From an archaeon GW2011_AR18 (GTDB lineage Archaea > Nanobdellota > Nanobdellia > SCGC-AAA011-G17 > GW2011-AR18): a stretch of DNA of 64,000 nt. Of the stretch, positions 1,673-60,211 are shown piece by piece (position 1 is the first letter of the stretch; each line of letters opens with the position of its first letter). The translations under genes and the position numbers were made by a program. The DNA lies in contig JWKX01000001.1 in NCBI GenBank assembly GCA_000806155.1, forward strand, positions 739 through 64,738, given 5' to 3'. The notes under the pieces were generated by a model, which was not told the DNA's origin, did not search any database, and was given only the letters and a program-made list of their open reading frames with translations.

Positions 1673-2185
1673 ATGAAAATACCTGTAAAAAACATTGAAG
1701 AAACTTTCGAGGAAATCGCCGGTCCTGAAGGTGTACAAGTGTACAGGCTTTTAAAGAATAAGGAAGACGTCAATGAATTCAATATAGCTGAAAAATTAAA
1801 GATAACTATTAATCAGTTAAGGAATATAATCTACAAGTTCGAGAAGTACAACCTTTTGACCTCAATAAGGAAGAAAGACAGGAAAAAAGGATGGTATATC
1901 TATTTCTTCACATTAAACCCTAAACAGATTGATGATACAGTAGTTCAGCTAGTAAGAGATAAGATGAGCATTATAGAGAAGCAGTTAGACAGGGAAAAAG
2001 CTCATCAGTTCTATTTATGCCCTAATAGGTGTGTAAGGCAGACTATTGAGAATGCTATGGAAAATCAGTTCATGTGCCATGAATGCGGCTCTTTATTAGA
2101 TGCAGAGAATAATGATAAGACAATAAATAAGATGCAAAAGAGGATTGAAGAATTAAATATTAAATTAAAGGAATTATCCAAATAA
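1673..2185 (+). CDS. tfe: transcription factor E (TFIIE alpha homolog)
   Basis: N-terminal winged-helix region plus C-terminal zinc ribbon (CPNRC ... CHEC). Size and layout are typical of archaeal TFE. The ORF track begins at 1643 with a TTG. ATG at 1673 is preferred because a TATA-like box sits at about 1631-1640. Confidence 0.75.
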   Translation: MKIPVKNIEETFEEIAGPEGVQVYRLLKNKEDVNEFNIAEKLKITINQLRNIIYKFEKYNLLTSIRKKDRKKGWYIYFFTLNPKQIDDTVVQLVRDKMSIIEKQLDREKAHQFYLCPNRCVRQTIENAMENQFMCHECGSLLDAENNDKTINKMQKRIEELNIKLKELSK

Positions 2186-2752
2186 ACTTCCAAATAATGG
2201 ATATAATACCTTGCTTCCATCTAATGGTGGTATTGGTATCATATTAAATAAGAACATCCATTTATTTATCTCTTTTGTCATTAATAATATCATCATTGTC
2301 TTCTCACTGTATTTTTTCTTAGAATAATCTAATATTAGCATTGGTATTATCCAGAATAATAAATTAATAAATGGTCCTGCAAATGCTGTTAATGAAAATA
2401 GATATGGATTGCTTGTTCCTGAAATACTTACATATCCTGGTGCTATAAGCATTAATGGTGCATTTAATACTTTCATTGCTATCCCTATTATCATTCCTGT
2501 AGGCCATATCTCAAATACTGCTTTAAATCCAAATGCTAATGCTACAAACTTATGTCCTAGTTCATGGAATATCACTCCTGGTGCTGCTGCTAATACTGCT
2601 ATCTTGAATTCTTCCCAGTTGAATCTTTTTAATGAAGTTAAAACATCTTTATTTGGTATCTTTATTACACCACTAAATATATATCCTACTACTAAAGTAG
2701 TTATTACTAAGTATATGATTTCTAGTGGTGTTATTATCACTTTACTCTTCAA
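2174..2752 (-). CDS. site-2 protease family zinc metalloprotease (peptidase M50)
   Basis: HELGH zinc-binding motif inside a TM helix and a downstream PLDGS (LDG) motif, in a multi-TM protein. The start codon is TTG at 2752. Confidence 0.7.
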   Translation of the reverse strand: MKSKVIITPLEIIYLVITTLVVGYIFSGVIKIPNKDVLTSLKRFNWEEFKIAVLAAAPGVIFHELGHKFVALAFGFKAVFEIWPTGMIIGIAMKVLNAPLMLIAPGYVSISGTSNPYLFSLTAFAGPFINLLFWIIPMLILDYSKKKYSEKTMMILLMTKEINKWMFLFNMIPIPPLDGSKVLYPLFGSLFG

Positions 2753-2921
2753 AGCTTAATAACAAGAATACTAATCCTACTACAAATACTACTACTGGTA
2801 TTCCTGCTTTTAGCATCACTAAAAAGTCTGTCCAAAACTTTGGCCATACAAATAATGCATACAATGATGCAACTATTAATAATAAGCCTACAATCATTTT
2901 TACTAATCCGCTTGCTTTCAT
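2742..2921 (-). CDS. small two-TM membrane protein (59 aa), overlaps start of S2P gene
   Basis: Manually translated: MKASGLVKMIVGLLLIVASLYALFVWPKFWTDFLVMLKAGIPVVVFVVGLVFLLLSFEE. Its stop overlaps the TTG start of the downstream gene by 8 nt, an operon-style overlap. Confidence 0.3.
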   Translation of the reverse strand: MKASGLVKMIVGLLLIVASLYALFVWPKFWTDFLVMLKAGIPVVVFVVGLVFLLLSFEE

Positions 2922-39491: not shown

Positions 39492-40982
39492 TTATAGCGC
39501 TAGCTTCACCCCGCAGTTCTCTAAAGCTTTTCTTATCTTATCCTCAGCAGCATCACCTTTTGTAACACCGCATGTTATTGCCATATTTTTTCTTAATCCA
39601 ATTGATGTTCCCTCAGGTGTTTCAATAGGACATAGTCTTCCGTAATGTGTTGGATGTAATGCTCTTGCCTCAAAATTTTCCTGTGTGCTTGTTAGTAATG
39701 AATTTACTCTCTGTAAGTGTGAATAAGCTGCTAAATAGTTTGTCCTGTCCATGTTCTGGCTTATTCCCTTTCTTCCCCCAGTCCATGATCCTGTTGCTAA
39801 TGCACTTTTTATATTTGAACTTAATAATTCATCTCTTATTATTATTTTTATTGACTGGAATTTTCCTCTCTTTACTAGTCTCTGGAAATTATACATTATA
39901 TCCTGTACTAGACTTCTTAGATTTGCTCTCATTAAATCCTCTAATAAATCTCCTGCCAGTTTCAATCTCTTGTTCATGTAATGGTCTTTGTCTGGTAATG
40001 GTAATTCATCCTCGCTTGCTTTCAGGAATTTTCTTACCATTTTACATAAGTTATATGCTTTTACCATTCTGTCTTTTGGTAATGTTCCTAGATGTGGTAA
40101 TAAATATTTATCAAGTTGTTCTCTTGTCTTCTCGAACTTTACCTCTTTTAGTTGTGTTATTCCTATTTTTTTTGCTAGATGTTCTAATGCCTCATCCTCT
40201 GTTTTTAATTCAGCTGAGTCGTATATGTTTATCATTACTGAATCATATTCTGAATCTCCTGATATCATCTTTACTATATCTGAATCTTTTACTAATCCCA
40301 ATGATTTTATTACTGGTATTACTGGAACTCTTCTGAATCTTGTGAATGTTAGATAGAATAATCCGTCTTTCATCTGTTCTATTGTATGAGGTATTCTGTA
40401 ACTTCCCATTTCTGAGAATACTTTACATACATAAGCACTTGGTCCTACTTCTTTCTTCTCTATGAATATTCTGTTTGATGCTAGATCCTCTACTGTTATT
40501 AATACTCTCTCATTTCCGTTTATTATAAAATATCCTCCAGCTTCATTCGGATCTTCACCTTTCTGTATTAATTCCTCTCTCTTTAATCCGTATAGATGGC
40601 AGTATTTTGATCTTATCATTATTGGCAGCTTTCCTATCATTGCTGTGAAATTTTCTCTCTGTATATCATCTACATATGCACTTACTTCTAGATATATTGG
40701 TGCTGAATATGTTAAGCTTCTTAATCTTGCTTCACAAGGATAGATATCTCTCTTGCTTCCATCTGCCTCTATTATAGACGGTTTTTCTATCCATATCTTT
40801 TTTAATTTTATTACAAAACTCTCCACCTCTTGCGGTATTATTGTCGGAACTACATCACCTAATTCATCTACTAATTTTTGTAATTGTTTTTCTATGAAAT
40901 CATTGAAGCTTCTTATATTTGATTCTACAAAAGGATTCTCTCTGAAAAATGCTTGTAATATCTCCCTGTACTCCTTAACCAT
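39492..40982 (-). CDS. rpoB2: DNA-directed RNA polymerase subunit B'' (Rpo2N, N-terminal half of split B)
   Basis: 496 aa, N-terminal rpoB homology. Split rpoB arrangement. Confidence 0.95.
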
Positions 40983-41217: not shown

Positions 41218-41231
41218 TTTTTGTGATTATG

Positions 41232-41379
41232 CGGGCCGGATGGGACTTTCAATCTTTCTTATCTTTTTGAACCCACGACCACTTGCTTTCATTCCGCTTG
41301 TTAAAAGGAACACCATCGACGAAATGATTTTTTCACATCGAGACGATTCAAGTGCTCTACCAAGCTGAGCTACCGGCCC
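41232..41379 (-). tRNA. tRNA with two inserts (anticodon-arm region and T-loop); isotype unresolved
   Basis: Acceptor GGGCCGG/CCGGCCC plus discriminator G. D-arm TAGCTCAGCTTGGTAGAGC. T-stem GTGGG/CCCAT, with a 20-nt insert in the T-loop TTCAAA[...]T. About 55 nt is inserted between CTTGA and GCAAG. The anticodon could not be assigned unambiguously (CGT, i.e. Thr, is one reading). Confidence 0.55.
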
Positions 41380-41595
41380 TTTGGTCATAGATCTATCTAA
41401 TGACATAGTTCAATCTATTGGAACATTATTGATGCTAGTGTCTTAGAAAGATTCATAAGTTCGAATGAAACGCGAGTAGTATATAAAGCTTTTGCTAGGC
41501 TGTTATATTTAAACATTACTGTAATTTATAGTTATGATTATTTTATAAAACTTGCTCTATATAATATATGTTGGATATTTTTATAAGAAAATTAA

Positions 41596-41705
41596 CGCCC
41601 TGGCCGAGATTTGAACTCGAGTTATGACCTTTCGTTGACAAAACATTATATAAAATAAAGCTTCATCTCGACAGGGTCAGGTGCTGACCGCTACACTACC
41701 AAGGC
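41596..41705 (-). tRNA. tRNA-Asp (GTC) with canonical-position intron (~38 nt)
   Basis: GCCTTGG-TA-GTGT-AGCGGTCA-GCAC-C-TGACC-CTGTCG[intron]A-GGTCA-TAAC-TCGAG-TTCAAAT-CTCGG-CCAGGGC-G. Confidence 0.75.
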
Positions 41706-41763
41706 CTAATTTGAAGTCTATTCAAGTAATTTATAAATTTTTCTCATTTTAAAAAGAATAGAG

Positions 41764-41925
41764 TCCCCTAGGAGGGATTCGAACCCCCAGCCTGTCGGGA
41801 TCAGCTGTTTGTTTTTCATTTCTTAGCATTATGCTTTTGATCAAACAATGATTTTCATCTACAGCCGACTGCTCCACCGCTACTCCCCTTATACTAAATG
41901 TATATAGAGCTTGAGCTACCAGGGG
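41764..41925 (-). tRNA. tRNA-Tyr (GTA) with two introns (D-loop ~30 nt and anticodon loop ~60 nt)
   Basis: Acceptor CCCCTGG/CTAGGGG with a C1-G72 pair. D-stem GCTC ... GAGC, with an insert inside the D-loop. Anticodon stem GTCGG/CCGAC, loop CTGTAG[intron]C. T-arm GGGGG-TTCGAAT-CCCTC. Confidence 0.65.
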
Positions 41926-41949
41926 GAACTCTAATAAAAATGAAAGGTG

Positions 41950-42747
41950 TTAGGTATTTAAAATTTGCTCCCAATTGTGTTTTTTTCTTGGGTAATAAAA
42001 ATTAGTGTTGTTATACAATATTTCATAAAGTTTAGAACAATATTCCTTAGGAATGTATAACTCAAAACACGTGCTTCCAAATTTAGGATTTTTAACGTTA
42101 ATTTCTAAAAATGAAAATTTATCTTTTAACTGATATAAAAATTTCTCAGAACCTGATGATATCTTTAAATTTCCATGTCTTGAGTGAGGAACATGTCCAT
42201 CACCATCTATGATACCTCTAATTAGGTTTGATAAAAATAATTTAGAAGAGGGCATATTAGGCATTTCAATTATTAAAGATTTATCACCAATAGGAACATT
42301 AAATGTATTATGAAAAAAATCAACCAAAGGTTTAGAACTAATAGTAATCTCATTATTGATTAATTTATTAAAACCGTATCTTCTAGGCCTAACAGACACT
42401 TTATAATTAAAAAGATTATAAGCAAGTTTGGAAATAAGTGCTAATTCAGCCATATAACTTGTATAAAGACACACTTTATTAGAATCATACTCTTGAGTTA
42501 AATGCCCATCAGTAATTAACAATCCTAAAAAATAATATAAATCTGGATTTTCTAGCGAAGGAATTTGTGCTGTTTGGAATCTCTTAACTTTATAACCACT
42601 AGCTTCCATTAGATTATTCCAACTTCCAAAATACTTCTTAGAATAATAATTTAAAGCATTAGAATCATATTTTGTGGGTCTTCTTCCTAGTTGATTATGA
42701 TATATCTTTATTTCAGAAATTAGATCATTTTTAGAGGAAATAATCAT
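41950..42747 (-). CDS. LAGLIDADG family homing endonuclease (double-motif, free-standing)
   Basis: Two dodecapeptide motifs, YYFLGLLITDGHL and IRGIIDGDGHV, about 100 aa apart. 265 aa. Not embedded in an obvious host ORF. Confidence 0.8.
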   Translation of the reverse strand: MIISSKNDLISEIKIYHNQLGRRPTKYDSNALNYYSKKYFGSWNNLMEASGYKVKRFQTAQIPSLENPDLYYFLGLLITDGHLTQEYDSNKVCLYTSYMAELALISKLAYNLFNYKVSVRPRRYGFNKLINNEITISSKPLVDFFHNTFNVPIGDKSLIIEMPNMPSSKLFLSNLIRGIIDGDGHVPHSRHGNLKISSGSEKFLYQLKDKFSFLEINVKNPKFGSTCFELYIPKEYCSKLYEILYNNTNFYYPRKKHNWEQILNT

Positions 42748-45147: not shown

Positions 45148-45229
45148 ATAATTTTTATTGTTTTATAGGATAATAAAGTCTTTTGTTTTCAGTTAACTTT
45201 AAAAATGAATTCTTTATTCAATTTATTAA

Positions 45230-45407
45230 GCCCCGATCGTCTAGTCCGGTCAAGGATAGGGCCCTTTCGATGCCTTTTCTTAATTAAAGGTTGAAGATAG
45301 GCTCTGACACGAGTTCGAAACAATAGATGATCTAAAACAAGGATGGTTTTATCCGGCGATCCAACTATCCTTCCATATTATCTATTGAGAAATTCTCGTT
45401 CGGGGCG
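45230..45407 (+). tRNA. tRNA-Glu (TTC) with two introns (anticodon loop ~29 nt and T-loop ~70 nt)
   Basis: GCCCCGA-TC-GTCT-AGTCCGGTCAA-GGAT-A-GGGCC-CTTTCG[intron]A-GGCTC-TGACA-CGAG-TTCGAA[intron]T-CTCGT-TCGGGGC-G. The acceptor 3' strand is found 70 nt downstream of the T-loop 5' half. Confidence 0.65.
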
Positions 45408-59782: not shown

Positions 59783-60048
59783 TAGTAGGCACGCCCAAGA
59801 GTGGATACACTAATCTTCACAGGTTGAGTCCTAATCTTTCCTCTACCCCGCTACCCTGTAAGCGTTATCTTGAATGCTTATTGTTGCTTTGTTCCCAATC
59901 TCACAAGTTTCACAATCAAAACAACCAGACAGGACAGGATATCACTGTAGTTATTAGGGCCTGCAAAAATTAATGCATCGCCTCTTGGACTTCGACTCCA
60001 TCTAAGACCGTTTATGGTTACAGGTGCGGCCTAAACACCCAGCCTAGC
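59783..60048 (-). ncRNA. ffs: candidate signal recognition particle RNA (7S RNA)
   Basis: Minus-strand reading contains the Alu-domain-like GGGUGUUUAGGCCGCACCUGUAACC (UGUAAC motif). A helix-8-like GUUGUUUUG ... CAAAGCAAC contains AGCA. Termini pair (UAGGC/GCCUA). No ORF is coherent across the region, and there are T-runs at both ends. Confidence 0.45.
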
Positions 60049-60211
60049 TTTTTTTAGTCCGAATGAGAATGGATATTTGTCTTCTGTTCCTTCCTCGCTT
60101 AATATCATTGTCTTATGTCCTTTAAATTCTCCTGTTTTTGCTGTCATTTTATTTTTCTCCTTATGATTTTATTTAAGTTTTAAATTTAGTAGATTATTAT
60201 ATACTTTATGA

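Follow-up and report, generated by a model that had tools for sequence, protein, structure and literature searches.

Can a tRNA gene that carries a long insert in its T-loop still give rise to a normal tRNA, or does such an insert mark the remains of a broken gene? This question is raised by a locus in a 64-kb stretch of DNA from the archaeon GW2011_AR18 (referred to below as the window), where the 5′ half of a tRNA-Glu is read without difficulty as far as the T-loop and the 3′ strands of the T-stem and the acceptor stem follow only after a long interruption. A preliminary description of the sequence had interpreted this arrangement as a tRNA-Glu(UUC) gene with one intron in the anticodon loop and a second one in the T-loop. 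We find that the locus is very probably a working tRNA-Glu(UUC) gene, contained in a single locus, of a tiny groundwater archaeon of the DPANN group; its primary transcript would contain both introns. The relatives of the host are labelled Nanoarchaeota or Woesearchaeota.

Organization of the tRNA-Glu(UUC) locus

The gene runs from G1 to the discriminator base G73 (45230..45407, + strand), as delimited by ARAGORN on the spliced 75-mer and by the fold of the precursor. Exon 1 (45230..45269, +) contains nucleotides 1–37 and consists of the 5′ strand of the acceptor stem GCCCCGA (45230-45236), the D arm (45239-45257), the 5′ strand of the anticodon stem GGGCC (45259-45263) and the loop segment CTTTCG (45264-45269), which corresponds to C32 U33 U34 U35 C36 G37. 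It is followed by a 30-nt stretch (45270-45299, +) that includes one base of the mature tRNA, the A at nucleotide 38. [quoted passage not shown] Exon 2 (45299..45319, +; nucleotides 38–59) contains A38, the closing strand of the anticodon stem GGCTC (45300-45304), the variable region, the T-stem strand ACGAG (45309-45313) and TTCGAA (45314-45319), the latter being U54 to A59.

A further 75 nt (45320-45394, +) lie between TTCGAA and CTCGT. One of these bases is U60, and the T-loop insert, intron 2 (45320..45393, +), therefore measures 74 nt; the insert itself was described correctly before, but its length had been given as 70 nt. It is placed at 59/60 on the basis of a BHB scan, comparison with orthologues and its conservation. 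Exon 3 (45394..45407, +) consists of U60, the T-stem strand CTCGT (45395-45399), the acceptor strand TCGGGGC (45400-45406) and G73 (45407). All of these exon pieces, including the CTCGT-TCGGGGC-G segment after the T-loop insert, are read in the sequence where they had been reported.

When both introns are removed in silico, the 75-nt product is called by ARAGORN as tRNA-Glu(ttc) with a normal cloverleaf, which bears out the earlier reading of the locus as a doubly interrupted tRNA-Glu(UUC). The 7-bp acceptor stem, the D arm, a 5-bp anticodon stem whose 7-nt loop has U33 and the anticodon UUC, the 5-bp T-stem and, after splicing, a 7-nt T-loop with the sequence UUCGAAU, which conforms to UUCRANN, are all present. 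The GC content of the spliced 75-mer is 61.5%, compared with 29.7% for the window. The CCA end is not encoded, and G73 is followed by TTT. In the MFE fold of the 178-nt precursor all four tRNA stems are formed (z = -4.76 relative to shuffles) and the long T-loop insert folds into a hairpin.

The unspliced locus (45230-45407) receives no tRNA call from ARAGORN, either with default parameters or in intron mode at several settings, and Rfam finds nothing real here at the gathering threshold or at E<=10. The only call at the locus, a 'tRNA-Glu(ctc)' that ARAGORN produces at a lowered threshold, is spurious and consists of AT-rich sequence. Reading the locus as a split or permuted tRNA gene was also rejected: the three exons follow one another in order on the + strand, all inside a stretch of 178 nt. 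No second tRNA-Glu(UUC) was found within the 64-kb window, and the assembly of a related species contains one locus among the matches listed in our tRNA-Glu genome scan.

A possible archaeal TATA box, TTTAAAAA, is read directly at 45198..45205 (+), 25-32 nt 5′ of G1, and an oligo-T run is found just 3′ of the gene. Together, TTTAAAAA and the downstream oligo-T would fit an archaeal promoter and terminator, which in DNA of 30% GC amounts to weak evidence.

The anticodon-loop intron

Intron 1 can be folded into a BHB in which the anticodon stem provides the outer helix h. The central helix consists of C32-G, U33-A, U34-A and U35·G, every pair of which is legal, and the bulges are C36 G37/A and A U/A38. 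After one U·U mismatch, the inner hairpin h′ continues with 6 bp (GCCUUU/AAAGGU). The 3-nt 3′ bulge A-U-A38 is also seen in the MFE fold, the register of which at 37/38 is shifted by one relative to the strict BHB scaffold. On this modelled pairing, intron 1 is predicted to be a canonical 37/38 BHB intron with a slightly relaxed 5′ bulge. In the related species L059 it differs by one substitution, which lies in the hairpin loop. The sequence of the intron contains GCCUUUUC.

The T-loop intron and its junctions

For an intron of n bases inserted between exon nucleotides X and X+1, we took the 5′ bulge of a BHB to be formed by X-1, X and the first intron base, the central helix by X-5..X-2 paired with intron bases n-5..n-2, and the 3′ bulge by the last two intron bases and X+1. 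Every junction pair of the 178-nt precursor was scanned for this geometry, independently of the tRNA model. The pair 45319/45394 is the sole one with a central helix H>=3, an outer helix h>=5 and an inner helix h′>=6. Its scores are H 3/4, h 5 and h′ 11, and a candidate that is as good was obtained in 9 of 300 shuffles. This is also the pair that restores the 7-nt T-loop, with X = 59. A search for a BHB fold at the T-loop junctions had been proposed as a check on the intron, and a compatible fold is thus found there as the top candidate of the scan.

In this motif the T-stem, with its 5 bp, serves as the outer helix, and the 11 bp at the base of the intron hairpin serve as the inner helix. In the central helix U54 pairs with A45391, U55 with A45390 and C56 with G45389, with G57 facing A45388. 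The bulges are A58 A59/A45320 and A45392 U45393/U60. The 3′ bulge A U/U60 is a proper one of 3 nt, and the 5′ bulge effectively becomes G57 A58 A59 A opposite a single A. With three standard pairs and G57 against A45388, the site falls outside the strict hBHBh′ definition, in which a 4-bp helix lies between two 3-nt bulges; it does possess the flanking helices, the one proper bulge and the junctions restoring the mature tRNA that characterize a relaxed BHB, the form accepted by broad-specificity EndAs. We refer to it as relaxed because the central helix comprises only 3 bp and the G57·A mismatch. This mismatch is invariant in four distinct homologues, and an α4-type EndA of strict specificity might not accept a 3-bp central helix with G57·A at this position. 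The strict BHB scaffold has an energy of -54.3, against -63.2 for the unconstrained MFE fold, and is about 9 kcal/mol less stable; in the MFE fold the T-loop site appears as a 7x7 internal loop.

Intron 2 itself is a long irregular hairpin with an 11-bp basal helix (45321-45331 paired with 45377-45387), an inner helix of 10 bp and an apical AUC-CGGC-GAU hairpin. Its final six bases, AGAA-AU, supply the 3′ strand of the central BHB helix and two bulge bases.

Comparison with orthologues, which had also been suggested in the preliminary description, leads to the same junction. The intron-less genes L016 and L083, as well as L085, which has an anticodon-loop intron only, read ...CGAG TTCGAAT CTCG... 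across the T-arm, and this T-loop UUCGAAU is that of the spliced product. It is reproduced by the 59/60 junction only. Moreover, when the 20 nt at 29/30 and the 74 nt at 59/60 are removed from the orthologue L129, the result is 75/75 identical to spliced L085. Since the BHB scan, the loop of the intron-less orthologues and the identity of L129 and L085 agree, we place the T-loop junction at 59/60.

Conservation among relatives and a possible role of the T-loop intron

Six contigs with the same neighbouring gene, drawn from groundwater metagenomes and two NCBI MAGs, represent the same population as the window (99.8-100% identical, with 100% in the tRNA region) and, being almost identical, carry no comparative signal. 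L059 ('Nanoarchaeota archaeon H52-bin077_1') belongs to another species, and its flanking genes are 87-90% identical to those of the window. Its pre-tRNA is identical at 190/192 positions, the alignment ends at the gene borders, and the T-loop intron is identical at 74/74 positions. In L130 the flanking coding DNA has about 73.5% identity and the T-loop intron about 85%; in L129, where the intron is again about 85% identical, the tRNA gene is the only part that aligns. The gene and both inserts are kept in other species in which the flanking intergenic DNA is not alignable, and the homologous T-loop introns are 74-77 nt long. Two of six metagenome matches (L128 and L131) are GC-rich, unrelated false positives and were discarded.

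At T-stem position 49-65, the window and L126 have an A-U pair, L129 and L130 a G-C pair. Because this pair is exchanged on both strands, pairing of the T-stem is maintained across the insert. Two inner pairs of the intron are likewise changed on both sides in the four-sequence alignment. Aligned on the proposed structure, the four distinct T-arm-plus-intron sequences have 96.9% of their cells paired, a share that drops to 37-53% with slid partners. With four distinct sequences only, this covariation supports the model rather than proves it.

The closest relatives of the exons among the matches listed, L016 and L083 without introns and L085 with an anticodon-loop intron of 32 nt, are all labelled Woesearchaeota, and exon differences from the intron-less orthologues are mostly paired changes in the anticodon stem. 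In L129 (Ga0209541_10000038), the tRNA-Glu gene at ~1612-1782 combines a homologous 74-nt T-loop intron with another intron of 20 nt in the anticodon stem; this second intron is at 29/30 rather than 37/38, and L085, with the same spliced tRNA, has 37/38 only. The first intron is thus absent, at 37/38 or at 29/30 depending on the relative, and judging from L129 and L085 it seems to be subject to turnover without any change in the mature tRNA. Intron transposition was considered and rejected: no second copy of either intron is present in the window or in the ~120 loci compared.

The degree of conservation of the T-loop intron raises the possibility that it plays a separate role once spliced out, for instance as a small RNA, stable or circular, or as a hairpin to which a protein binds. 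We regard this as unlikely but deserving of some weight, because the intron is conserved beyond what a BHB requires. At 88% identity about nine changes would be expected over its length, whereas none is seen in L059 with its 87-90% identical flanks. The apical UUAUCCGGCGAU and the 20-mer at the 3′ end are invariant in L129 and L130. A length of 74-77 nt is also far beyond the needs of a BHB, the 59/60 intron of the tRNA-Lys in the same window being only 20 nt long. Set against this, Rfam finds no match in the intron at E<=10, manual inspection reveals no convincing C/D boxes or K-turn, and no second copy of the intron is found in the window or the compared loci. The genes L016, L083 and L085 have near-identical exons and do without the T-loop intron. 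The comparison furthermore involves four distinct sequences only, and slow evolution is to be expected of a stable hairpin anyway. That the intron would be an old, lineage-specific structured RNA under selection at the sequence level is correspondingly doubtful.

Specific candidates for such a role were examined individually. C/D box sRNAs, of which the euryarchaeal tRNA-Trp intron is an example, have the boxes RUGAUGA and CUGA, a terminal stem, C′/D′ boxes and guides of 10-12 nt. The T-loop intron offers only AGAUGA, close to its 5′ end, and UUGA, close to its 3′ end; both fall within the basal helix, in a register that provides no terminal stem. A C/D family is also absent from the intron in Rfam at E<=10. 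A reading as a K-turn has no Rfam support. Pairing of the intron apex (GAUCG...CCGG) with CCGGCGAUC came up as a BHB-like top match and was judged to be due to chance. In three species, 32, 89 and 101 out of 500 shuffles reach the energy of the duplex between the apex and the 5′ end, and complementarity of the intron to the 5′ end of the tRNA, a further point against a separate role, is no better than in shuffles.

Frequency of 59/60 inserts in tRNA-Glu(UUC)

Scanning species-representative genomes with a pattern for the 5′ half of tRNA-Glu gave at least 119 loci, mostly from DPANN archaea, 105 of which could be parsed. Among these matches listed, 46/105 parsed genes have no insert, 37/105 have an anticodon-loop insert only, 21/105 combine anticodon-loop and T-arm inserts and 1/105 has a T-arm insert only. 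The T-arm insert directly follows TTCRAA in 18/105 of the parsed genes among the matches listed, with lengths of 10-112 nt, and in all 18 of these listed genes 59/60 is the best BHB. The 3′ ends of the 18 inserts share a signature: a tetramer complementary to U54-R57, then two bulge nucleotides, then U60. The tetramer is UGAA or UGGA; L019, which has a G at position 57, shows CGGA instead. Most of the 18 matches listed are labelled Aenigmatarchaeota and some Micrarchaeota, with several having no phylum label. To call the position rare and non-canonical, as had been done, overstates the case: it is a listed intron position that is used in 18/105 genes among the matches listed and again in the tRNA-Lys of the window.

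In four Aenigmatarchaeota tRNA-Glu genes (L022, L023, L095 and L104) the T-arm insert lies away from 59/60. The best BHB of L023 is at 53/54, with a 4/4 central helix and an inner helix of 8 bp. Many of the 59/60 introns of L010, L044, L070, L072, L078, L090, L093 and L119, which are mostly from Aenigmatarchaeota, share a CC(C)UUUU/CCCUUUC-like motif within ~10 nt of their 5′ end; in the window, GCCUUUUC of the anticodon-loop intron is to be noted beside it. This motif may just be one strand of the inner hairpin.

Functional gene or disrupted gene

A very improbable alternative is that the locus is a pseudogene, disrupted by 74 nt of DNA inserted in the T-loop, with a working tRNA-Glu(UUC) located elsewhere. 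The failure of standard finders to call the locus and the mismatch in the central BHB helix would fit such a view, and the search for another tRNA-Glu(UUC) covered the 64-kb window and the matches listed in the genome scan. The exons, however, are 75/75 identical in L059, L126 and L127, of which L059 is a species with 87-90% identical flanks, and exon 1 is identical at 40/40 positions in the same three despite diverging flanks. The T-stem covaries across the insert, and the insert has been kept while the flanking coding DNA has fallen to ~73% identity or ceased to align. Joining the exons at these junctions gives precisely the mature sequence of the orthologues, and the same architecture is found in the tRNA-Glu genes of 18 other species among the matches listed. 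At 30% GC, GAA is the expected main Glu codon, and a tRNA-Glu(UUC) should therefore be needed.

That the insert is simply retained, giving a mature tRNA with an enlarged T-loop carrying a 74-nt hairpin, can practically be dismissed: the hairpin is autonomous and does not disturb the T-stem of the MFE fold, but an insertion at 59/60 would break the geometry of the T-loop, the conserved 7-nt form of which docks on the D-loop, orthologues with identical exons have the normal 7-nt loop, and the ends of the insert carry the BHB signature common to other 59/60 inserts.

For a functional gene with two introns, the expected course of events follows from archaeal tRNA biology. The locus would be transcribed, and EndA would cleave every 3-nt bulge after its second base, at 37/38 as well as at 59/60. 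The three exons would then be joined by an RtcB-type ligase, the type that joins tRNA exons in archaea, and CCA would be added after joining to give the 75-nt tRNA with the T-loop UUCGAAU.

Other tRNA genes and neighbours in the window

A 730-nt gap at 41218-41949 (-) holds three tRNA genes, for Asp, Lys and, probably, Tyr. The tRNA-Lys(UUU) gene (148 nt, 41232-41379, -) contains three inserts and is missed by both ARAGORN and Rfam. The insert at 30/31 has 40 nt (41309-41348, -) and forms a BHB with a 4/4 central helix, the one at 37/38 has 14 nt (about 41288-41301, -) and the one at 59/60 in the T-loop has 20 nt (41246-41265, -), again with a 4/4 central helix, and ends in TGAAAG/T. The spliced 74-mer is called as tRNA-Lys(ttt) by ARAGORN. 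The probable hidden tRNA-Tyr(GUA) gene (162 nt, 41764-41925, -) has a C1-G72 pair and inserts of 59 nt at 37/38 and ~33 nt in the D-loop. Spliced in one way, it yields 70 nt that are recognized by ARAGORN as tRNA-Tyr(gta), with an uncertain D-loop junction and a weak BHB; the region is 89% identical in L059. The tRNA-Asp(GUC) gene (41596-41705, -), with an anticodon-loop intron of ~40 nt, is the only tRNA of the window detected by Rfam (44.3 bits). Introns are thus present in 4/4 tRNA genes of the window, counting the probable tRNA-Tyr, and two of them (Glu and Lys) have a T-loop intron.

Directly upstream of the three-tRNA cluster lies a 265-aa open reading frame (ORF; 41950-42747, -) with HNH_repeat (homing-endonuclease-associated) and LAGLIDADG_3 domains. 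It is free-standing, outside the introns, and present in all contigs of the same population. RNA polymerase subunit B is split, a known arrangement in some archaea: Rpb2 domains 1-3 are in a 496-aa ORF (39492-40982, -), and L002 and L003 show that domains 4-7 are encoded separately, by an ORF of ~600 aa. An archaeal-type SRP RNA is found at 59783-60054 of the window.

A tblastn search of the 64-kb window with an approximate M. jannaschii query found no EndA gene, giving only one marginal match (E = 0.08) with no ORF on its strand. With an approximate query, two adjacent tblastn EndA matches (E = 7e-17 and 4e-5) are found in the Micrarchaeota MAG L057 at ~2041-2916 (-), a few kilobases from its tRNA-Glu, and these may represent the gene of a multi-unit splicing endonuclease.

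The value of the tRNA-Glu locus is mainly practical and concerns the annotation of tRNA genes that escape ARAGORN and Rfam. Hidden in the 64-kb window are at least one further tRNA, the three-intron tRNA-Lys, and probably a third, the tRNA-Tyr; multi-intron genes of this kind are a concrete explanation for some of the 'missing' DPANN tRNAs. Relatives with identical or near-identical mature tRNAs have no intron, an intron at 37/38, introns at 37/38 and 59/60, or introns at 29/30 and 59/60, a series that could serve to study gain and loss of tRNA introns and the action of a DPANN endonuclease on a 3-bp central helix. Existing understanding of the function of tRNA introns is unchanged by this locus.

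Comparison with known systems

Positions 53/54, 56/57 and 59/60 are listed as non-canonical intron positions in archaea (PMC4090602). In the DPANN archaeon ARMAN-2, the pre-tRNA-Cys has a 13-nt intron at 59/60 with a relaxed BHB that is cleaved in vitro by its own endonuclease (Fujishima et al., PMC3239211), and the tRNA-Pro has two T-loop introns (PMC3239211). Heavy disruption of tRNA genes is known from DPANN archaea including Woesearchaeota and Pacearchaeota (Kaneta et al., PMC5829648), and the incomplete tRNA sets predicted for DPANN archaea point to disrupted genes that went undetected (PMC5829648). With tRNAscan-SE, a full tRNA set is obtained for 96/208 complete genomes of the same phylum (bioRxiv 10.64898/2026.05.13.725050). 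Given the precedents in PMC4090602, PMC3239211 and PMC5829648, we consider the locus to be another case of a known type of 59/60 intron. The arrangement with two introns is unusual in general but already documented, and it is fairly common in the DPANN group. What is particular to the window locus is its long, conserved 74-nt intron, the central helix of 3 bp plus G·A, and relatives that vary in their introns.

The ARMAN-2 tRNA-Cys resembles the window gene in the 59/60 position in the T-loop, in belonging to the same superphylum and in having a relaxed BHB. It differs in that the window gene has Glu identity, an intron of 74 rather than 13 nt, a strong inner helix and an extra intron at 37/38. 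ARMAN-2 also has an ε2 EndA, whereas the host lineage here is Nanoarchaeota/Woesearchaeota-like; for Woesearchaeota and Pacearchaeota an α4-type EndA with an extra L3 loop has been reported (PMC5829648).

The tRNA-Glu genes of Aenigmatarchaeota and Micrarchaeota (L010, L019, L040, L044, L047, L054, L064, L070-72, L078 and others) share both the position and the 3′-end signature of the T-loop intron, and those with a 59/60 insert usually also have a 37/38 intron, as is the case here. Their 59/60 introns cannot be aligned with that of the window, and they mostly have a 4/4 central helix, compared with 3/4 in the window gene.

In the multi-intron tRNAs of Thermoproteales and other Crenarchaeota (Sugahara et al. 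2007, 2008; Fujishima et al. 2010; as summarized in PMC4090602), introns are likewise present or absent between relatives. According to the same summary, these organisms belong to another superphylum and have an (αβ)2 EndA, and in Thermoproteales intron sequences recur across tRNA genes through transposition, whereas the window intron has no second copy in the window or in the compared loci.

Finally, the split tRNA-Glu of Nanoarchaeum equitans (Randau et al. 2005, as cited in bioRxiv 10.64898/2026.05.13.725050) is also a disrupted tRNA-Glu from the same phylum-level group. As outlined there, its junction is BHB-like and relies on the same endonuclease and ligase machinery, features that the window gene would share. 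The two N. equitans halves are located at separate loci and trans-spliced, whereas the exons of the window gene lie colinearly within 178 nt.
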